Sequence record: OZ470804.1
DNA: 64,000 bases
Direction: 5' to 3' (one strand)
From: a phage
The notes beneath the pieces are model-generated. The model saw only the letters and a program-made list of their open reading frames with translations. It ran no database searches and had not been told where the DNA came from. A program made the translations under genes and the position numbers. Of the stretch, positions 3,046-48,157 are shown one piece after another; the first letter of the stretch is position 1; each line of letters begins with the position of its first letter.

Positions 3046-3375
3046 TTAGTCTGCCAACCTTAAATTGAAATTAACACCAAATTTTTCACACACTTCCAAC
3101 ATATACTCAAGGGAAACATTCCCAGTGAGGTGGATTATGTTGGATACACGAGCCTGAGAGATACCACAAATTTTAGCAACTTGCTCTTGAGAAAGACCTC
3201 TGGATTTAATCTCTCTCTTAAAACGATGTGCAACGAAGTCTCTCATTTCGTCTACATCCATTGGACAAATATAACTCTCCATTTCAGCCTCTCTATCAGC
3301 CTCCCAATCATCTTGTGGGGCATAAGGGTCAAAAACCTCATTCATCTTTCTTCTTCCGTTTGCGTGAAGTGTCAA
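3046..3375 (-). CDS. HTH (XRE-like) DNA-binding protein
   Basis: GLSQEQVAKICGISQARVSNIIH helix-turn-helix motif; alternative start at 3345 would remove overlap with next ORF. Confidence 0.5.
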   Translation of the reverse strand: MTLHANGRRKMNEVFDPYAPQDDWEADREAEMESYICPMDVDEMRDFVAHRFKREIKSRGLSQEQVAKICGISQARVSNIIHLTGNVSLEYMLEVCEKFGVNFNLRLAD

Positions 3376-3935: not shown

Positions 3936-4297
3936 AATGACCTCAAAGTTATATTAAATTTTGTATTACATTGAGTATAAAAATAAGCTATAACACCTGA
4001 CTTGTCAACAGATTTTATAGCTTATTTGGCAGATTTTTTATAAGGCTACTGCCATCCTTCCATACCGAACCGTGCCTAACCTGACCATGCCACACCTTAC
4101 AATACCAAACATTACTTAAAAACCCTCTTAGAAGACTCTTAAGTGATGTAATCGAATTTTAATGTAGCTCCGATTAACTACCCATACCTGACCAGACCTT
4201 GCCAAACCTTACCTCACCCAACTACACCGAACCTCATTAAAAGACCCTCTTAAAAGACCTTTTAAAAAGGAGCCTCCGAAGAGGCTACCTAGTCAAC
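3936..4297. repeat. structured intergenic leader, copy 1 (paralog of 5344-5772)
   Basis: shares modules GGCAGATTTTTTATAAGGCTACTGCCATCCTTCCATAC, TTTTAATGTAGCT-loop hairpin and C/A-rich G-poor tracts with the second copy. Confidence 0.7.
4262..4287 (-). terminator. intrinsic terminator (minus strand)
   Basis: hairpin AGCCTC-CGAA-GAGGCT with A-run on plus strand (T-run on minus) just downstream of ORF 4298-4738. Confidence 0.55.
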
Positions 4298-8364: not shown

Positions 8365-8868
8365 TCAACTTAGTTTTGCAAACTCTCCGTGGAGTTTTAC
8401 AGCAGCTTCACAGTAAGCTTTATGGGCTTCTTCTGGTGTGTCAAATAAACCAAGTGATGTCCTTTTACCTCTGCATGTTATAGCTGCCCTCCACTTATTA
8501 CAGTCTTTAAAGTAATGTACACCCTTGTAACCTGATTTATTAGTCGTCTGCTTTATTCTATTTTGTGCATTTCCGTATTTATCAGTCTCCCTAAGATTAG
8601 AAATGTGATTATTACTTCTGTTACCATCAATGTGGTCTATCATCTTAGTGGGTTTGTAACCATGTTCGAACCACCAAACGAGGTGATGAATTTTTATTAC
8701 GACATCTTTGAATTTAAGTACTTTGTAACCGTAAGCATCAGCACCTCCTGCAATCTGCCCAGCTTTAGCTTGTCTATTCCTGTCATACTTGTTGTAGAAG
8801 ACCCCTTTGTCGGGGTCGTAAATAAAATTATCCTTGTAATCTTGAAGTGTTAGTGTACGGCGTACCAT
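8365..8868 (-). CDS. HNH homing endonuclease with AP2 DNA-binding domain
   Basis: HNH motif DHIDGNRSNNHISNLRE plus AP2-like SGYKGVHYF..WRAAI; sits immediately downstream of polymerase gene. Confidence 0.75.
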   Translation of the reverse strand: MVRRTLTLQDYKDNFIYDPDKGVFYNKYDRNRQAKAGQIAGGADAYGYKVLKFKDVVIKIHHLVWWFEHGYKPTKMIDHIDGNRSNNHISNLRETDKYGNAQNRIKQTTNKSGYKGVHYFKDCNKWRAAITCRGKRTSLGLFDTPEEAHKAYCEAAVKLHGEFAKLS

Positions 8869-13844: not shown

Positions 13845-14045
13845 ATGAAGATGAGAGTAAAAGATAATTTCAAAGTTATTGACCATCGTTTAGTGGAACT
13901 CTCATCTCTTTCCAATGAGGTAATGATTGAACGTCTTAAGAGAGTTGAATCACGAAGGAAAGAGATTGCAGACGAAATTCATGAACTGGACAAGATTGAA
14001 AATGGATTGAAGGCAGAACTACAACGAAGAGGTGCTAATGTCTAA
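13845..14045 (+). CDS. hypothetical coiled-coil protein
   Basis: 66 aa ORF overlapping primase start. Confidence 0.4.
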   Translation: MKMRVKDNFKVIDHRLVELSSLSNEVMIERLKRVESRRKEIADEIHELDKIENGLKAELQRRGANV

Positions 14046-16023
14046 AGGTCGTAAATTGAAAGAGGCTGGTCAGTTTATTGGTCATTGTGCATGTCCACGT
14101 TGTGGTTCATCAGATGCTGGTTCAATCTACCATCATGACGATGATTCTTATTCGATGACTTGCTTTAGTTGTAATAAAGGTTTCCCAGAGTGGGATTTTG
14201 ATAAAGGACAAATCGTGAGCACTTATTCTACTGGTTCAGACAATAAAAACCGTACTTTCCGTGGAATGGATTTAGACGATGTAAAAGAAAACCTAGAAGC
14301 AATGGACTTGAAAGACAGGAAGATTCCTGCAAAAGTCCTTGAACGTTTAGGTATCAAGGTTGACATTGATGGTGACGGTGAAATTGACGCACATTTCTAT
14401 CCAACTTACAAACGTAATGAAGATGGTAAGCTAGAGCACGTCGGTTATCGTGTACGTCACCGTTACCCAGAAGACCACCCAAAAGAACATCTACGCGGTA
14501 AGTTAAAAGACTTTTCAGGTGGTGTTGGGGACATTAAAGGTGAACTGGCAATGTTCGGTTCATGGATTGCTCCAGAAGGTGGTAACCGTCTATTCATTTG
14601 GGAAGGTGAGATGGAATGTGCCACAGCAATCTACATGACTTCTCTGGCGATTAAAGATAAGTCTCGTCGTAAGAATTACTGTCACGTATCTGTTCCATCA
14701 GGTGCAAACATTAAGTCTATCAAAGACAACTATCAGTACATTACATCATTTGATGAGATTTACTTGTGCTTTGATAACGATGAAGCAGGTGCTAAAGCTA
14801 CCAAAGAAGCTGCTGGTATCCTACCTATTGAGAAGGTTCGTTTATTCCAGTATCCAGAAGGTGTAAAAGACCTTAACGAATGGTGGACAAAGTTCTATAA
14901 AGAGAAAGACACAGTTCTGGAAGGATTTAAACAGCGTATCTACAACGCACCTCGTTACTGCCCTGCTGGTATCAAGAACTTCGCAGATGGTTTTGAGGCA
15001 ATGAAGAATCGTGGTCAGATTCCATTGATTCCTTTCCCAGAATCTTTCGGAGATTTGAACAGGTTGACTTATGGTGGTTATGGTTTAGGTGAGATTACAA
15101 CTCTGGCAGCACCATCTTCAGTAGGTAAATCAGCGTACACCCGTGAAATGATTTACACTGCTTGGAAGGAAACTGATTATAATATTGGTGTAATTCCTGT
15201 AGAAGATACCTATGAAGAGTTGATGGAGATGCTCTGTGCAATTCATCTAAGCAAGCAGATTTCTGAGATTCCTTATGATGAACGTGATTGGGATGAATTG
15301 AAGGAAGCACACGCAGAACTATCTAAAGGTCGTCGTATCCATATCGTTGACCATCAAGGGGCAATTGACCAAGATAACCTGCTGGAATTTGTTGACTATC
15401 TTGTTAACAGTTTAGACTGTAAGATTATTATTCTTGACCCTATTACGTTGGCTCTGTCACGTTCAGATACGGATGAAGAGGAAGTTTTATCTGAGCTATT
15501 GCGTCGTTGCAAACGCTACCAGTATGCACAGGTAAACGTATGTCACGTTCGTAAGAGTGCAGGTGGTCAGAAAGCTAACTCTGAAGGTGGAGATATCTCT
15601 GAAGAGGATATTAAGGGTTCTGGTGCATACTTCCAGATTTCCATGAACAACATTCTGTTAATGCGTAACAAGGTTGACCCAGACCCTGTTAAGAAAAACT
15701 TGACAAAAATCAAGTTAACTAAGTGTCGTCGTCATGGTAAGTCAACAGGTATTGCTGGTCATACTTGGTACAATCCAGATACAGGACGTCTTATCAAAGC
15801 TTCTGGATGTGGTGTTGACATTGATGGTGCAGCAGAAAATATTCGTCAACAGTTTGGTATTGGTGAAGCTGAAGACCATTACGATGACTCTTTACCTCAT
15901 TATGAGGATGAAGTGTTTGACCGTGAGACTGGTGAAGTCTATACTGAAGAACAGCGTCAAAGTTCAACAATCCCACCTGTATTAAGCGAGGATGCAGATG
16001 ACTGCCCGTTCGAAACTGAGTGA
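14032..16023 (+). CDS. bifunctional DNA primase/helicase (T7 gp4-like)
   Basis: N-terminal zinc ribbon CACPRCG..CFSCNKGF, DnaB-type Walker A AAPSSVGKSAYT, Walker B IIILDP. Confidence 0.85.
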   Translation: MLMSKGRKLKEAGQFIGHCACPRCGSSDAGSIYHHDDDSYSMTCFSCNKGFPEWDFDKGQIVSTYSTGSDNKNRTFRGMDLDDVKENLEAMDLKDRKIPAKVLERLGIKVDIDGDGEIDAHFYPTYKRNEDGKLEHVGYRVRHRYPEDHPKEHLRGKLKDFSGGVGDIKGELAMFGSWIAPEGGNRLFIWEGEMECATAIYMTSLAIKDKSRRKNYCHVSVPSGANIKSIKDNYQYITSFDEIYLCFDNDEAGAKATKEAAGILPIEKVRLFQYPEGVKDLNEWWTKFYKEKDTVLEGFKQRIYNAPRYCPAGIKNFADGFEAMKNRGQIPLIPFPESFGDLNRLTYGGYGLGEITTLAAPSSVGKSAYTREMIYTAWKETDYNIGVIPVEDTYEELMEMLCAIHLSKQISEIPYDERDWDELKEAHAELSKGRRIHIVDHQGAIDQDNLLEFVDYLVNSLDCKIIILDPITLALSRSDTDEEEVLSELLRRCKRYQYAQVNVCHVRKSAGGQKANSEGGDISEEDIKGSGAYFQISMNNILLMRNKVDPDPVKKNLTKIKLTKCRRHGKSTGIAGHTWYNPDTGRLIKASGCGVDIDGAAENIRQQFGIGEAEDHYDDSLPHYEDEVFDRETGEVYTEEQRQSSTIPPVLSEDADDCPFETE

Positions 16024-17417: not shown

Positions 17418-18464
17418 ATGGAGAAGTACACATTAACAAAACTTCCCGATTCAGTTACACATGTCTTTATTGACTCTGATAGCATTGCCTATAAAGGTGC
17501 TTGTGTAGTTGAGAAAGCAAAATATAAATATGTCAATAAACTCACAGCAGAAGAATCTGAACCATTTGATAATGCAAAAGATGCTGCAAGATGGTTAGCA
17601 GACCAGAGAATCCTTGTAGAAGAGCTTGGACTGACATTTGATGAAGATGAATGGGAAAGACAGACTTGGAAAGAAGCTAAGAGTGAAAAAGAAGCTATCA
17701 TGGCTACTCAGCAGGTTCTTCAGGAATGGCTTAAGGTTGTTGGTAAAGAAAGAACTTGGGTAGGTTATTTAACAGAGAAAGGTGTGCATAAACATAAAGA
17801 CATTAAAGGTCTTGAGCACCAATATCAAGGTAACCGCAAAGATGCTGTCACACCAACACACTTAGTTGCTTGTCGTGAGTATCTTCTGTCAAGGCCAGAG
17901 TTCAAATTGATTCTTGATGGATTTGAAGCTGACTCTATCGTTATTGCTAAAGCTGAAAAGATGGGTAAAAAGGCTGCCTTAATGAGTATTGATAAAGACC
18001 TTCGCCAAGCTGAAGGGACTTACTGCATTGATATGACCTATGAAAAGTCGCCTTTGATTTTCATTGCTGATAACAACGTTGGTGAAATTTGGGATTGTCC
18101 AATAAAATCGACACCAAAAGCTAAGAAGACAGTTGGGGTAGGTTTTAAATTTCTTTGTTACCAAGCTGTGGCTGGTGATAATGCGGATAATTATTTTGGT
18201 TTAAAGGGTGTTGGTAAGGTTACTATAATGAAAGCCCTTGAAGGTAAAACCACCTACAAAGAGTGTCTTGATGCAATTTATGAGCTTTATGCTAAGAAAG
18301 AGTCATACACTTATGTCTCGTGGGATGGTCAAACAATTACCAGAACACCTTTAGAGTTAATGCAGCAACACTTTTTCTTAGCTTATCAGGAAAGAAACAA
18401 GAAAGACGATTTCACTTTTGATAAGTATGGGTGGACACCAAATGTTAACTCAACAAACTCTTAA
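17418..18464 (+). CDS. 5'-3' exonuclease / flap endonuclease
   Basis: helix-3-turn-helix motif GLKGVGKVTIMKALEG and acidic metal-binding residues. Confidence 0.75.
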   Translation: MEKYTLTKLPDSVTHVFIDSDSIAYKGACVVEKAKYKYVNKLTAEESEPFDNAKDAARWLADQRILVEELGLTFDEDEWERQTWKEAKSEKEAIMATQQVLQEWLKVVGKERTWVGYLTEKGVHKHKDIKGLEHQYQGNRKDAVTPTHLVACREYLLSRPEFKLILDGFEADSIVIAKAEKMGKKAALMSIDKDLRQAEGTYCIDMTYEKSPLIFIADNNVGEIWDCPIKSTPKAKKTVGVGFKFLCYQAVAGDNADNYFGLKGVGKVTIMKALEGKTTYKECLDAIYELYAKKESYTYVSWDGQTITRTPLELMQQHFFLAYQERNKKDDFTFDKYGWTPNVNSTNS

Positions 18465-18942
18465 AGAATACCTGCACTATGACCCCGAAACAGGGGTCTT
18501 TACTTGGTTAGTTGGTAGAAAAGGTAAGGCCAAAGCTGGCTCAGTAGCAGGTCTTAAACATCATAGTGGTTATATTTATATAAAACTCTTCGGAAAAAGA
18601 TATGCAGCACACAGACTGGCATTCTTGTATATGAAAGGATACCTCCCAAAATTTGTTGACCACAAGAATGGTATCAGGCACGACAACTGGTTCGACAATT
18701 TGAGAGAGTGTAGCAGGTCAGACAACAACTGCAATGCAGTCAAAAGAAAAGATAATAAGTCTGGTGTGAAGGGTGTATATTACCACAAGCAAAGGGGTAG
18801 GTGGGCTGCACAAGTCAAGCATAATAAAGTATGCTACCATCTAGGTTTATTTGACTCTATCACTGAGGCTGAATCAGTTGTCAAAAAGAAAAGAGAAGAA
18901 CTCCATAGAGAGTTTACAAATCACGGAGAAGCTCATGAATGA
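18442..18942 (+). CDS. HNH homing endonuclease with AP2 domain
   Basis: FVDHKNGIRHDNWFDNLRE and SGVKGVYYHKQRGRWAAQV; paralog of 8365-8868. Confidence 0.7.
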   Translation: MLTQQTLKEYLHYDPETGVFTWLVGRKGKAKAGSVAGLKHHSGYIYIKLFGKRYAAHRLAFLYMKGYLPKFVDHKNGIRHDNWFDNLRECSRSDNNCNAVKRKDNKSGVKGVYYHKQRGRWAAQVKHNKVCYHLGLFDSITEAESVVKKKREELHREFTNHGEAHE

Positions 18943-19439
18943 TTAAAGTTAAAGGTTTTGGGAGTTGTCCAACTTATGGTCACTGGATTTCACTATGTGG
19001 TGAAGTTGACCCAGCAAAGCACTTTGGTTTTGTCTACCTAGTGTACTGCAAAAAGACTGGACAGTACTATTTGGGTAAGAAACAGCTTAACAGTGTGACA
19101 AAAAGAAAAGTTGCCGGTAAGACTCGGAAGAAGGTAGTCACTAAGGAGAGTGATTGGATGACTTATGAGACTTCTTCTGAGTATATTAAAAAAGATATTG
19201 AGAGCTTTGGAAAAGAATTTTTTGACTTTTACATTATTCAGACCTACTACACAAAAGGTGGCCTAGTCTATGGTGAAGCAAACCTTCAACATAAATTCGA
19301 TGTAATGACAAAAAGGATTGACTCGAAGCTCAGACTCTTCTACAATGCCAATATTGCAGCAATTAAGTTTATTACTAAAGAAACTTATGAAGATGCTGAA
19401 AAAAGAATCCATAAGGTAATGAAAGCAAATTGTGCTTGA
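18939..19439 (+). CDS. hypothetical protein
   Basis: 166 aa ORF. Confidence 0.5.
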   Translation: MIKVKGFGSCPTYGHWISLCGEVDPAKHFGFVYLVYCKKTGQYYLGKKQLNSVTKRKVAGKTRKKVVTKESDWMTYETSSEYIKKDIESFGKEFFDFYIIQTYYTKGGLVYGEANLQHKFDVMTKRIDSKLRLFYNANIAAIKFITKETYEDAEKRIHKVMKANCA

Positions 19440-40317: not shown

Positions 40318-40518
40318 ATGGCTGACTTCTGCAAAGACTGTTCTATCGAAATGTTTGGACGTGATACAGGTGACTTAAAAGGTCTTATCACTGAAGATGA
40401 CTTTAAAGCTGGCTATGCAATGCCAGTAATCTGTGAAGGCTGTGGGTGCATCTGGGTAGACCATGAAGGGCAACGTGTAAAACCTTCAGAAGATAAAGAA
40501 TCTTGGGAGAGATGTTAA
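40318..40518 (+). CDS. Cys-rich small protein
   Basis: CKDC..CEGCGC pairs, 66 aa. Confidence 0.45.
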   Translation: MADFCKDCSIEMFGRDTGDLKGLITEDDFKAGYAMPVICEGCGCIWVDHEGQRVKPSEDKESWERC

Positions 40519-41304
40519 ATGGGTATTGTAAAAATCATCAAAGGCGATATCTTTGACGCCTTTGATAAAGGTAAGTTTGATATCATTGGGCATGGTTGCA
40601 ACTGTATGAATTTCATGGGTGCAGGTATTGCAGCAACTATTTCTAAGCGTTATCCAAAAGTGTATGATACTGACACAGAAGTTTACCTGTTTGCAGGTGG
40701 CATCCGTCACAAACCCTGTGAGAATTTACTAGGTAATTTCTCTGTAGCACGCTTAAAACAAGGTCGTATAGCTAACCTTTACACCCAACTTCATACTGGT
40801 AAAGATGCCCGATACAGTGCTTTAGAGTCATCTTTGAAACAACTTAACAGATACTGTGAAGTTAACCAGTTGAAGAAAGTCGGTCTGCCTATGATTGGTG
40901 CAGGTATCGGTGGACTTGACCCTCAAGCTGTCACAGTTATCATCAATCAGGTTATGAAGAGCGTAGATGTTTATCTGTATGTCTATGAAGCAAAAATGTA
41001 TAATGAGTTACACTCAGGTTGGAAGAACTACTGTGAACCAGAATACTTTGCAGGTGTAGCAGTGTTCATAGATAACGCAGTTACCCTCTTCAGACGAAGA
41101 AAAGGTAAGATACATCAAAGTAACCCTCCGGTTGAAAAGATGTCTCTAAGTAACGCTCTAGTTACCCACCTGTCAAAGAGCAATCACAGAATTGCAGTAA
41201 CATTTGGAAGTGATGCAGATGCTTATATCTATGCAAGAACTGATGAGGATATCGAGACGGTTTTCTCTTCACCAGAGCTTACCTTCTTAGACGCAAAGAA
41301 CTAA
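40519..41304 (+). CDS. macro-domain (ADP-ribose binding/processing) protein
   Basis: IKGDIF..FDIIGHGCNCMNFMGAGIAATISKRYP and VGLPMIGAGIGGLDP match macro-domain signature; about 110 aa C-terminal extension. Confidence 0.65.
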   Translation: MGIVKIIKGDIFDAFDKGKFDIIGHGCNCMNFMGAGIAATISKRYPKVYDTDTEVYLFAGGIRHKPCENLLGNFSVARLKQGRIANLYTQLHTGKDARYSALESSLKQLNRYCEVNQLKKVGLPMIGAGIGGLDPQAVTVIINQVMKSVDVYLYVYEAKMYNELHSGWKNYCEPEYFAGVAVFIDNAVTLFRRRKGKIHQSNPPVEKMSLSNALVTHLSKSNHRIAVTFGSDADAYIYARTDEDIETVFSSPELTFLDAKN

Positions 41305-41369
41305 GAAACTTCGTAGTATATTCACAATAGACTAAGCCTTTCTTATCTGGTAAATTTTTCAGGTAAGGA

Positions 41370-41600
41370 GGGCTTTTTCATTTCAGAATTGTGCAGGTAT
41401 ATTTCTATAGAGAAATCTGTAGAGGAAATTTTGAACTCCAAAGAGAAAATTCATTTTCAAACTGTGCAGATAATCTCCAAAGGACTTTTTCATTTTCAAA
41501 ACGTGCAGACCCCGCTCAGGTCGGGCAAGAAAAATCATTTTAGAATTGTGCAGGTAGGTGGGTGCAGGTGTGGATGTCGCCATTTCTCACAAGGCTACCA
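41370..41600. repeat. iteron-like array (4-5 copies of TCATTTTCARAAYTGTGCAGRT)
   Basis: copies near 41380, 41450, 41495, 41540 plus GGGTGCAGGTG; about 45-55 bp spacing. Confidence 0.6.
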
Positions 41601-41733
41601 CATCTGAAAAGAAAAGTCAACAGAAAAATTTGTAGCGGATTGAAAAATAATTCTTGATTGTAGTTCTGTTTTGTGGTAGTCGCGTGCGCCCGTTTCATTA
41701 CAGTTTTTTGCAAAAATATTTTTAAAATTCCTA

Positions 41734-41762
41734 TTGACTCTCTGACTATGGTTATTTAGTAT
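41734..41762 (+). promoter_or_regulatory. sigma70-type promoter
   Basis: TTGACT-17 bp-TAGTAT in AT-rich region upstream of first small gene. Confidence 0.55.
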
Positions 41763-41812
41763 TTGCATCAGACAGGCAAACAAGCCTACTTCCTAAACTG
41801 GAGATTTAAAAA

Positions 41813-42019
41813 ATGATTTACAGCCGTGAATTGATGGTTACAACCAACGTTAATACAAAGGTAAAACGTTTTTACATGCAAGTGTGCGGCGCATGGCGTA
41901 GAATATCAGAAGCTGATTATTGCAACTATGTAGAAACGGCAATCAATTCTAATTGCTACCTTACGAAGAATACAAAGCGACATATAAAACAGACAGCGGT
42001 TTACTATTACGATATATAA
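41813..42019 (+). CDS. small hypothetical protein (array gene 1)
   Basis: 68 aa ORF preceded by conserved TAAACTGGAGATT RBS block. Confidence 0.5.
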   Translation: MIYSRELMVTTNVNTKVKRFYMQVCGAWRRISEADYCNYVETAINSNCYLTKNTKRHIKQTAVYYYDI

Positions 42020-42020
42020 A

Positions 42021-42109
42021 AAGTACTTTACAGGGGGCTTAAAAGCTGATATCTTAAGCCCCAGATAAAGAGCTTTACTAAATTAACCCTTAAACTAGGA
42101 GATTCAAAA
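42021..42109 (+). promoter_or_regulatory. leader cassette type A, copy 1
   Basis: AAGTACTTTACA, GGGGCTT..AAGCCCC hairpin, AGATAAAGAGCTTTAC, TAAACTAGGAGATTCAAAAATG. Confidence 0.65.
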
Positions 42110-42493
42110 ATGGCTTATCGTGCACCTAAATTCATCAACAAAGACAACTTTCGCAACGCACTGGAGAAGTCACTTGATGAAAATTTTAAAGGTAACATTA
42201 TCGTTGTTCACGCATTCAATTTTAAGTATGATGTAAACGGGAATAGAATCAACCATTACACAGCAACCATGTTAGATGGTACGCTATCAAGTGAAAAAGC
42301 TGTACTGAATGCACTTGCAGGACGTGGTAAAAACCTGATAAGATGCGATAAGAGACGTTATCAGGGTGGCGCATATGGTTATGATGATGCTGTTTACCAT
42401 CTTGAAAATATGGGCTATCAAGTAGAAAAAGCTGGAGCATCACAAATCATCGGCAGCGATGGTTATGTAACTATCTTCAAAATTAACAAATAA
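42110..42493 (+). CDS. small hypothetical protein (array gene 2)
   Basis: 127 aa ORF driven by type A cassette. Confidence 0.55.
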   Translation: MAYRAPKFINKDNFRNALEKSLDENFKGNIIVVHAFNFKYDVNGNRINHYTATMLDGTLSSEKAVLNALAGRGKNLIRCDKRRYQGGAYGYDDAVYHLENMGYQVEKAGASQIIGSDGYVTIFKINK

Positions 42494-42579
42494 AGTACTT
42501 TACAAGGGGCTTATAGTTCGATAAAGTAAGCCCCAGATAAAGAGCTTTACCACTCAATCCTAAATTGGAGAACTTAAAA
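42493..42579 (+). promoter_or_regulatory. leader cassette type A, copy 2
   Basis: same cassette with compensatory stem variant GGGGCTTAT..TAAGCCCC. Confidence 0.65.
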
Positions 42580-47153: not shown

Positions 47154-47243
47154 TTTGTCAATCAACGGGGAGGGAATGACCTCCCCCCACTACATAAAAC
47201 CCTTAAACTAGGAGATTCAAAAATGGTGATAAGAAAGAAGTAG
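47128..47243 (+). promoter_or_regulatory. leader cassette type B, copy 5 (orphan, drives only a 6-codon ORF)
   Basis: TTGACG-17 bp-TAATTT then hairpin then RBS then ATGGTGATAAGAAAGAAGTAG. Confidence 0.55.
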
Positions 47244-47245
47244 TG

Positions 47246-48110
47246 ACCATGTTAATAGCTTGTTAAAAAGATTAGACACTTGTTAGGAACTTGTTAATTA
47301 TCTTAACAAAATAACTCTTAAAAATTAACTTGTTAGCTCTTGTTAGTCATCTGTTAAGATTCTGTAAAGCCTATTCAGCACTTGTTAAGAAACTGTTAAA
47401 GCCTTGTTAGTTCTGTTAAGAATCTGTTAAGACCTTTGAAGAGTTGTTAAGAAGATGTGAGAGCTGTTAAGAGATTGTTAAGGATATTTTAAAATTTTGC
47501 AAAGGGGATGTTACAGGGATGTTAAGGGCTACCAAGCAGATATACATCTTCTACAGATATTTTTGAGTTCCTTCAAAGACCCTAAAAAATGACTTGATAG
47601 TCCTATTTTATAAAAATTTTAAAATTCTGAATAATTACCTAGACAGTCTTTTAAAAATACAGGTAGAAACAGGCTTATAAGATACCTTGTTAGTACCGTG
47701 TTAGACCTTGTGAGATAAGGTCTGTGAAGATATTCCTGTTAAGTTTGTTAAAACAGTCTATATAGAGGCTTAGTAATACCTAGTGAACACCTATAGAGAG
47801 TCACATAGCTTACATAGAGATTAAGAGGTGTATAGGAGCTTCTAAGAGTGTGTAGAGAGATGGTTAAGATGATTGTATAGGTTGTTTAGAAGGCTTGTTA
47901 GAAGAGTGTTTAGATGGCTATTTAGAAGGGCTATACAGAGGGCTATTAAGACCACTAGATAGTTACTAAGATACTATATAGTACTATATAACTATATAGA
48001 GAGTAAGATTAAGAAGGTTGTTAAGAAGGATAGATATTTTATTCACATATGATGGTGACCCAGAGGTTGGGACAACCGATAAAATTTTATAAAAAATATA
48101 AATTTCGTAA
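47246..48110. repeat. non-coding block of degenerate ~11 bp periodic repeats (YTGTTAAG / TTGTTAG / TATAG units)
   Basis: more than 20 copies of CTGTTAAG-like units between 47270 and 47480, further TAGAG/TTAAG/TATAG units to 48050; no ORF longer than 60 codons. Confidence 0.7.
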
Positions 48111-48137
48111 ATTTTACTCAATAAAAAGCCCCCGATT
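48110..48137 (-). terminator. intrinsic terminator (minus strand)
   Basis: AGCCCCC..GGAGGCT hairpin with plus-strand A-run, downstream of ORF 48158-48751. Confidence 0.45.
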
Positions 48138-48157
48138 AAGGAGGCTCTTAAGATATT

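Follow-up and report, generated by a model that had tools for sequence, protein, structure and literature searches.

What is a non-coding gap of 508 bp, with four direct repeats in it, kept for in a phage genome that is ~90% coding? The question is raised by positions 41305-41812 of a 64,000-nucleotide stretch of phage DNA from sequence record OZ470804.1, which was analyzed as a whole and is called the window hereafter. Four direct copies of a ~23-bp unit, all of them on the + strand, can be found in this gap. They are almost certainly a docking site for a protein, and are best read as an array that occurs once per genome, acts in cis, and is bound by one sequence-specific DNA-binding protein, the binder probably being phage-encoded. 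Among the functions that such an array could have, that of a replication origin, with the repeats as iterons beside an AT-rich block and an outward promoter, is ranked first as a tentative proposal. That a protein binds the repeats, and that the bound complex would start replication rather than control transcription, we infer from sequence and layout.

By megablast, positions 40500-42500 of the window matched 248 phage records, the best at 91-94% identity, and nearly all of these are Felix O1-like myoviruses of Escherichia, Salmonella, and Shigella (Felixounavirus, subfamily Ounavirinae). Judging from these matches, the window belongs to Felixounavirus; it also contains a cluster of 22 tRNA genes, which is typical of the Felix O1-like group. 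Phages of this group are widely used in Salmonella typing, biocontrol, and therapy, and Bas63 now serves as a model for genome-wide phage genetics.

The Repeat Array and Its Conservation

The repeat units follow the pattern (A/T)5-TCATTT(T)-N6-GTGCAG-RT, which reads (purine-rich)-(A/T)5-TCATTT(T)-CAAWYT-GTGCAG-RT when the alignment is anchored on GTGCA. Two types of copy alternate, namely T-type copies (repeats 1 and 3; CTTTTTCATTT) and A-type copies (repeats 2 and 4; GAAAA(T)TCATTTT). The units show no dyad symmetry, differ from each other by 1-nt indels, and are spaced irregularly, at 73/39/45 bp from start to start, with gaps of 50/16/22 bp between them. An earlier note on this DNA, made from the sequence alone, had described four to five copies of a ~22-bp unit lying 45-55 bp apart. 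Four copies are indeed present; the supposed fifth is a half-motif only (GGGTGCAGGTG, 41560-41570), situated within a variable segment for which many relatives have unrelated sequence, and the spacing measured here departs from the range given. Because of the 1-nt indels, the ungapped 22-mer consensus of the earlier note retrieves only one copy with up to three mismatches allowed. A weak look-alike of the motif at 41693-41724 is not conserved.

The pattern TCATTT-N3-9-GTGCAG has exactly four matches in the 64 kb, with 0.08 expected from shuffled sequences, and none of 100 shuffles reached four. A position weight matrix (PWM) was built from the repeats of relatives and used to scan the window and the complete 87-kb genome of UAB_Phi87: the array sites score 31-39 bits, the next-best sites 11.8 bits in the window and 13.7 bits in the UAB_Phi87 genome. 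The array occurs once per genome. This single locus rules out a phage-specific promoter class or a dispersed regulon, and argues for a single cis-acting site. In the non-coding DNA of the window, local direct-repeat arrays other than this one occur only in the terminal-repeat region and, as a promoter-like pair of two copies, before the tRNAs. The genome-wide motif search had been suggested in the earlier note, where uniqueness of the motif to this spot was counted, together with a lack of protein binding and dispensability of the region, as a refutation; the motif is unique to it, but this uniqueness fits a single-copy origin-like element more than it counts against one.

Two other descriptions of the repeats were rejected. 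Regarding each repeat as a sigma-70 promoter, only copy 1 matches at 9 of 12 positions (TTTTCA-17-TATATT), the geometry being broken elsewhere by a 1-nt indel. Regarding a CRISPR-like mini-array, the gaps of 50/16/22 bp are irregular and the intervening sequences are conserved between phages.

The array region is non-coding. The open reading frames (ORFs) that overlap the repeats had been suspected of being spurious, and the relatives bear this out, their frames being broken or deprived of a start codon. The + strand ORF 41391-41543 has no ribosome-binding site, and frameshifts or stops interrupt it in Moogle, Sf13, VpaE1-type phages, and locus L017; the - strand ORF 41383-41583 is likewise broken in Moogle, and Felix O1-type alleles provide no start codon for it. 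In the gap, no tRNA was detected by ARAGORN, nothing reached the gathering score in an Rfam scan (two hits only, both with E>0.3), and RNA folding gave no structure common to the repeats. A function at the RNA level, in which a non-coding RNA or sponge with four motifs would arise by read-through of the upstream terminator t13 or from a weak leftward promoter (TTGACT 41620-41615, 17 nt, TAGCCT 41597-41592), can be regarded as very unlikely. In its favor, RT-PCR (reverse transcription polymerase chain reaction) for the old 'ORF14' in the gap was positive in Felix O1, and the fold of the + strand has a z-score of -3.8. However, that RT-PCR was not strand-specific, the favorable fold is essentially the terminator hairpin, the minus strand has a z-score of -1.3, and the leftward -10 box is poor and allele-dependent.

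The relative positions of the copies are the same in Felix O1, where the array lies at about 7.95-8.4 kb, and in all 20 IMG/VR loci. Most of these genomes have four strict-pattern copies and the rest have one diverged copy in place, with three copies in a truncated locus (L014), a probable assembly chimera, which past repeat 3 (from about locus position 4008) turns GC-rich and, by eye only, bacterial-looking and mukB-like. Four copies occur as well in the Suspvirus SUSP2, in the Moogleviruses Moogle and Sf13, and in the Kolesnikviruses phiEa21-4, phi63_307, and Hena2 of Erwinia or Cronobacter. The array is positionally conserved in four genera (Felixounavirus, Mooglevirus, Suspvirus, and Kolesnikvirus). 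By BLAST it was found in 28 Erwinia phages, where the repeats alone are alignable in the gap (41450-41552, i.e., query 146-248); repeat 4 of the window looks orthologous to copy 3 of phiEa21-4. Outside the Ounavirinae, only chance single matches were obtained among the first 120 IMG/VR stretches, and no similar sequence was found in plasmids or in 5,426 E. coli genomes.

Within the gap, the mean minor-allele fraction is 0.060 in the repeat cores versus 0.123 in the spacers (Mann-Whitney p=6e-6), and identity to Moogle amounts to 85% in the cores, 62% in the spacers, and 64% at four-fold degenerate sites of the neighboring gene. These figures indicate that the repeats are under purifying selection. 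Copy-specific quirks are common to Felix O1 and Moogle, copy 1 being one T short and copy 3 ending in CAGA; since the copies keep such individual features, the array is ancient and maintained rather than recently duplicated.

The spacing differs by genus, with 73/39/45 bp in the window, 75/41/45 bp in Moogle, and 37/37/39 bp in phiEa21-4. In Kolesnikvirus, the units are regular 37-39-bp tandem units which all end in GTGCATAG rather than GTGCAGGT, and either homogenization or co-evolution with the binder may account for this. In VpaE1-type phages, three copies are accompanied by an inverted half-site (CTGCACAGAT) in place of repeat 2. In VpaE1_ev035 and phiWec172 (loci L035 and L036, at about 845-885 of the locus), it is a small palindrome, ATCTGTAGGGGTCTGCACAGAT, that replaces repeat 2, with the GTGCAG half inverted. 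The 3' end of the upstream gene, which encodes a macro-domain protein, and the terminator hairpin are also non-homologous in the VpaE1 type. Several lineage recombination breakpoints coincide with repeat edges, as BLAST alignments start at 41490 or end at 41559.

It could be argued that the repeats are an evolutionary relic, i.e., decayed tandem duplicates of a module made of a terminator tail plus downstream sequence, and are functionless now. The first motif half, CTTTTTCATTT, is the usual terminator tail in this phage (t5 and t13, with a near variant in t35), G-rich runs resembling the 3' arm of a hairpin precede copies 1 and 3, and the Kolesnikvirus array looks homogenized into its tandem units. 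This reading is nevertheless unlikely: the cores are conserved across genera well above spacers and four-fold sites, individual copies can be recognized by their own features in both Felix O1 and Moogle, independent lineages retain about four copies, and the GTGCAG half is unrelated to terminators.

The Gap and Its Flanks

The features of the gap are collected in Table 1. Its length agrees with the ~500 bp estimated before, and the AT-rich stretch and the TTGACT-17-TAGTAT promoter that had been noticed after the array are both present and conserved.

Table 1. Features of the non-coding gap and of the genes on either side, with positions in the window.
Feature	Position	Strand	Basis or remark
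Gene of macro-domain 'phosphatase' (Felix O1 ORF13 homologue)	40519-41304	+	Pfam Macro domain; phrog_335 phosphatase
Intrinsic terminator hairpin, 17 pairs	41334-41375	+	Terminator scan
Repeat 1 (T-type), TTTCATTTCAGAATTGTGCAGGT	41376-41398	+	PWM, 38.8 bits
Repeat 2 (A-type), ATTCATTTTCAAACTGTGCAGAT	41449-41471	+	PWM, 37.5 bits
Repeat 3 (T-type), TTTCATTTTCAAAACGTGCAGAC	41488-41510	+	PWM, 31.2 bits
Repeat 4 (A-type), AATCATTTTAGAATTGTGCAGGT	41533-41555	+	PWM, 36.9 bits
Variable segment ('allele A' in the window), with half-motif GTGCAGGTG	41556-41611		Alignment of relatives
AT-rich block, ~73% A+T, AAAAGTCAACAGAAAAATTTGTAGCGGATTGAAAAATAATTCTTGATTG	41612-41670		83-100% identity even to Moogle and SUSP2
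Sigma-70-type promoter, TTGACT-17-TAGTAT	41734-41762	+	Promoter scan; A/T-rich region upstream
68-aa gene opening the right-terminal small-gene block (phrog_5293)	41813-42019	+	Gene calls; PHROG

The macro-domain gene always precedes the array, as the synteny of Felix O1, Moogle, phiEa21-4, Sf13, Ro111lw, and Hena2 indicates. It is followed by a terminator hairpin whose T-run is the start of repeat 1. This hairpin is the terminator t13 of the Felix O1 genome paper (-21.8 kcal/mol) and is annotated in Tribble and ASO1A as well.

After repeat 4, two unrelated alleles can be found among the window, L024, L026, L032, L033, and other loci, and the identity of the 56-bp variable segment to relatives is 0.32-0.38, versus at least 0.83 on both sides of it. 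The other allele, present in Felix O1, Moogle, SUSP2, and about one third of the loci, is a C-rich mirror-repeat tract, CCCCTCTCCCCCTCTTACTCCCCCTCTCCCC, in which a regular-expression search recognizes a canonical G-quadruplex (G4) motif on the minus strand; the same search finds no G4 motif anywhere in the 64-kb window. Erwinia phages have a shorter C-rich stretch at this place, which falls below the G4 pattern. The C-rich tract is a possible Rho-loading or R-loop element.

Further downstream, the GC fraction falls to 0.28 at 41610-41669 and to 0.25 at 41700-41759, with ~0.38-0.39 for the window overall. The AT-rich block could be an unwinding element or upstream promoter DNA, and phiEa21-4 shares a GTCAAG-N32-TTGAYT arrangement with this region. 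The promoter points away from the array, into the small-gene block; its -35 and -10 boxes are invariant in 22 distinct sequences with a varying spacer, and a promoter is annotated at the equivalent place in ASO1A. The nearest repeat lies 178 bp upstream of the -35 box (the last repeat ends at 41555 and the -35 box starts at 41734). The distance between array and promoter is not conserved, being ~186 bp in the window, ~172 bp in Moogle, and ~221 bp in phiEa21-4.

The 68-aa gene at the right edge of the gap is missing at its position in some relatives, and is therefore independent of the array; the alignments of many relatives extend only to query position 466. The gap of Ro111lw is followed by a gene of 381 bp, which is taken to be a 127-aa homologue. 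The small genes that follow, from 42020-42076 to ~47150, are mostly separated by repeated cassettes, each combining a promoter-like TTTACA-17-TATCTT/TAAAGT, a hairpin of the form GGGGCTTAA...TTAAGCCCC, and an almost invariable ribosome-binding site (TAAACTAGGAGATTCAAAAATG); these cassettes correspond to the 57-bp repeats of the Felix O1 paper.

In Felix O1, ORF13 and ORFs 16 and 20-22 belong to the earliest class of genes by RT-PCR, with a peak at 5 min, according to the genome paper. Since both flanks consist of earliest-class genes, the 508-bp gap marks no temporal boundary, and since so long a gap is costly in a genome of such coding density, another cis function is needed for it.

The main rival of an origin is a local transcription-control or insulator element, in which the bound protein would modulate the adjacent early promoter or promoters. 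Several variants of it can be conceived, namely an upstream activator platform, a looping or spreading repressor for early shut-off, or a roadblock reinforcing the terminator, so that the upstream operon and the small-gene block would be expressed independently. The position of the array, after a strong terminator and before the promoter that opens the small-gene block, is in keeping with such a function, and the overlap of copy 1 with the T-run of the terminator is constant, persisting in the VpaE1 type, whose hairpin is non-homologous. Moreover, conservation is high in the promoter and in the block at -70 to -125, and the downstream small genes are in the earliest class by RT-PCR. However, even the closest copy is 178 bp from the -35 box at a distance that varies between genera, the units are asymmetric, and no copies are found at the other promoters, which precede nearly every small gene, so that one array could not shut off the block. 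In addition, the sole recognizable regulator, a HTH_3 protein, is undetected in Kolesnikviruses that carry the array. Control of transcription is held to be somewhat less likely than the origin and is placed second to it.

A Candidate Origin, Its Putative Binder, and the Genome Ends

The origin is ranked first because of the layout, with terminator-protected repeats, an AT-rich block, and an outward promoter in succession, together with a T7-like replisome. In the mechanism envisaged, the binder would load on the four same-orientation sites, in a pocket kept transcription-free by terminator t13; the conserved AT-rich block at 41612-41670 would be the DNA that opens; and the outward promoter at 41734 would provide negative supercoiling and/or a priming transcript to the T7-type replisome. 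Origins of the T7 type are promoter-linked. The replisome of the window is of this type, with a gp4-like primase-helicase combining Toprim and DnaB_C domains at 14032-16023, beside which a large DNA polymerase is annotated in relatives, and a T7-like primase-helicase is also recorded in the Felix O1 genome paper. Three genes of the homing-endonuclease type can be found in the replication module, at 8365-8868 (-), 18418-18942 (+), and 18939-19439 (+), which are respectively a HNH gene with an AP2 domain, a HNH-type ORF (phrog_99), and a SegE-like GIY-YIG gene.

Several observations weigh against an origin. T7-type origins need no iterons, and VpaE1-type phages suffice with three copies. The spacing of 39-75 bp is irregular and genus-specific (37-39 bp in Kolesnikvirus), unlike the periodicity of ~22 bp expected of iterons. 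By Pfam and PHROG, no initiator-like or DNA-binding gene is recognizable beside the array or in the replication module, the neighbors of the array being the macro-domain phosphatase and small proteins without Pfam or PHROG function. The GC skew shows no switch at 41.4 kb and turns at ~12 kb and ~48 kb with the direction of transcription. There are no consensus DnaA boxes in the gap, and its A/T tracts are not helically phased (R=0.09-0.19, with a null mean of 0.20). Finally, no experimental mapping of an origin in Felix O1-like phages was found in literature searches. Of the operator or origin-iteron layout put forward in the earlier note, what stands is a real non-coding direct-repeat array with its AT-rich stretch and promoter; promoter-proximal sites, dyads, regular spacing, a recognizable initiator, and DnaA boxes are all missing.

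Regarding the binder, two candidates had been named at the outset, the HTH protein of the phage and host DnaA, and neither fits well. The HTH_3 gene, which lies at 3049-3375 on the minus strand and not on the plus strand, was found in 261 records but in no Erwinia phage, whereas the array is present in 28 of them. As to DnaA, the repeats of the window are at least two mismatches away from a DnaA box. A cluster of host-factor sites, for DnaA or another nucleoid or regulatory protein instead of a phage protein, is accordingly a rather improbable alternative. It draws on the Kolesnikvirus repeats, which contain CTATGCACA or TTATGCACG with 8 of 9 matches to TTWTNCACA, and on the A/T tracts, whose density in the gap is about three times that of the genome (43 vs 14 per kb). 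With one mismatch or fewer allowed, all four repeats of phiEa21-4 match TTWTNCACA, but none of the repeats of the window, Felix O1, or Moogle does: in Felixounavirus, Mooglevirus, and Suspvirus, the copies read ACCTGCACA, ATCTGCACA, or GTCTGCACG, with only 6-7 of 9 matches. The DnaA specificity of the hosts is expected to be equal, yet the copies differ between genera, and TTWTNCACA boxes are, if anything, scarcer in the window than expected from shuffles (5 vs 11.4 +/- 3.1). The absence of similar sequence from E. coli genomes and plasmids also speaks against a host factor. In informal comparisons by eye, the consensus sequences of IHF, Fis, CRP, ArgR, Fur, LexA, and sigma-54 did not fit the unit either.

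The size of the gap resembles that of the short direct terminal repeats (DTRs) published for this group, which measure 608 bp in UAB_Phi87, 613 bp in Ro111lw, and 581 bp in Pr103Blw, and two IMG/VR contigs (L007 and L009) end at one same base just past repeat 4. Nonetheless, a terminal repeat or pac site at the array is refuted and retains practically no probability. In the Ro111lw record, an identical DTR of 613 bp is present at both ends and maps to 15152-15765 of UAB_Phi87 and to ~47228-47533 of the window, and the Bal31-sensitive SpeI fragments of UAB_Phi87 (4322 + 2819 bp) fit only ~15260-15833. These two mappings place the physical end within the convergent non-coding stretch 47154-48157, and hence ~6 kb downstream of the repeats. 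The two contig ends fall in the strain-variable C-rich tract of a multi-strain sample, and contig L009 continues into Nextera adapter sequence (CTGTCTCTTATACACATCT...).

The convergent region 47154-48157, ~1 kb long, is full of short repeats of the TGTTAAG/CTTAACA type: 11 of the window's 37 TGTTAAG sites lie within 47302-48025, a family with a periodicity of ~31 bp occupies 47350-47495, and the cumulative GC skew peaks in the region. At 47223-47243 (junction 47227/47228), the window is ~1 kb shorter than Ro111lw and UAB_Phi87. The missing part comprises the left ~285 bp of the DTR and, from the gene table of Ro111lw, probably the last small genes before it; at the junction, a ribosome-binding site and ATG are fused to DTR-internal sequence, giving a stub of six codons (ATGGTGATAAGAAAGAAGTAG). 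This may be either a real deletion shifting the termini or an assembly collapse at the terminal repeat. The UAB_Phi87 record JN225449 (loci L028 and L029) has a terminal redundancy of 542 bp, at 1-542 and 87062-87603, in the tRNA region, which disagrees with the Bal31/SpeI ends of the paper and with the DTR of Ro111lw; this record appears to start at an assembly overlap instead of a physical end. Directly before the tRNA cluster of the window, two 28-bp direct repeats (57898-57925 and 57989-58016) lie 91 bp apart. They are AAAAAGTTTTAAAAAGGGTATTGACAAT-like, with an A/T-rich upstream tract and TTGACA, and look like tandem strong promoters for the tRNA genes.

The proximity of the array to a physical end gives rise to one further proposal, that of a DNA-entry pause signal: the right end would enter first, transfer would halt at the array, ~7-8% into the genome, the small earliest-class genes would be expressed, and their product, acting at the repeats, would let transfer resume. 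In Ro111lw, 7.0-7.2 kb (~8%) separate the array from the right physical end; the corresponding distance is ~6 kb in the window and ~7.3 kb, up to the record end, in Hena2, whose record was opened in the equivalent repeat-rich non-coding region. The array is always at the inner edge of the early small-gene block transcribed toward the end, in which ORFs 16 and 20-22 peak at 5 min in Felix O1, and each of the four repeats of phiEa21-4 is one mismatch from a DnaA box, a feature that Davison proposes for T5. Against this, the DnaA model for T5 is a hypothesis in a preprint, the repeats of the window are further from DnaA boxes, the upstream gene ORF13 is early too, and neither two-step injection nor the first-entering end of Felix O1-like phages was found in the literature. 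A pause of DNA entry is therefore rather improbable as well; if true, it would be a second, independent case of what T5 does, in a phage family that is unrelated to T5 and has only a short terminal repeat, and two-step injection would be no peculiarity of T5.

The Array among Known Systems

The Felix O1 genome paper lists direct repeats of at least 24 bp and terminator t13 without this array, and states that temporal regulation is not understood. In other genome papers and annotations, the gap is left empty or filled with short hypothetical ORFs. Full-text searches found no published account of the array, an origin, transcription start sites, or stepwise injection for this group, and no intergenic data for the array locus are reported in the text of the Bas63 knockout study. 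The array can thus be considered a newly described, putative direct-repeat protein-binding array of a phage non-coding region, a kind of element already known. Outside the terminal-repeat region, no other non-coding repeat element is both conserved and single-copy, which makes the array the obvious place to begin in Felix O1-like phages when mapping an origin, pulling down proteins, or making deletions. Knowing its binder would give a function to at least one of many uncharacterized phage proteins and would tell genome engineers which non-coding DNA to keep.

Asymmetric direct units in several copies can also be found in the operator or centromere-like arrays of ribbon-helix-helix and winged-helix proteins, and such units suggest cooperative binding. 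Unlike these arrays, the sites studied here are far from the promoter and belong to a lytic phage without a partition system; no ribbon-helix-helix or winged-helix binder of the array was identified.

The injection-stop signal (iss) of T5 offers another comparison. The first-step-transfer DNA of T5 makes up 7.9% of the genome and is bounded by this signal, a conserved non-coding repeat region (Repeat Region 3), transcription of its essential pre-early genes runs toward the end, and DnaA boxes have been proposed as the active part of the signal (Davison preprint). Both systems have conserved non-coding repeats at the inner edge of a terminal block of ~8% with the earliest genes, many of which are transcribed toward the genome end, and sequences resembling DnaA boxes are shared in the Kolesnikvirus version of the array only. 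However, the T5 region is ~1 kb long, is dominated by inverted repeats and palindromes, with paired DnaA boxes, and lies inside a terminal repeat of 10 kb, whereas the Felix O1-like array consists of four direct repeats outside a terminal repeat of 0.6 kb.

The primary origin of T7 resembles the locus in its general setting, with a gp4-like primase-helicase and an adjacent DNA polymerase, a non-coding gap, a strong promoter, and AT-rich DNA. It differs in that the promoter of the window is of the host sigma-70 type, that the AT-rich DNA is upstream and not downstream of it, and that T7 has no repeat array.

Iteron-type origins include lambda ori, with four O-protein sites and an AT-rich region, P4 ori/crr, SPP1 oriL, T4 oriE, and those of iteron plasmids. 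Unlike them, the array is spaced irregularly, at 39-75 bp and not at about two helical turns, has neither an adjacent recognizable initiator gene nor DnaA boxes, and is accompanied by a T7-like replisome. Like them, it combines several same-orientation direct repeats of ~20 bp at one non-coding locus per genome, set beside a conserved AT-rich block and a promoter.

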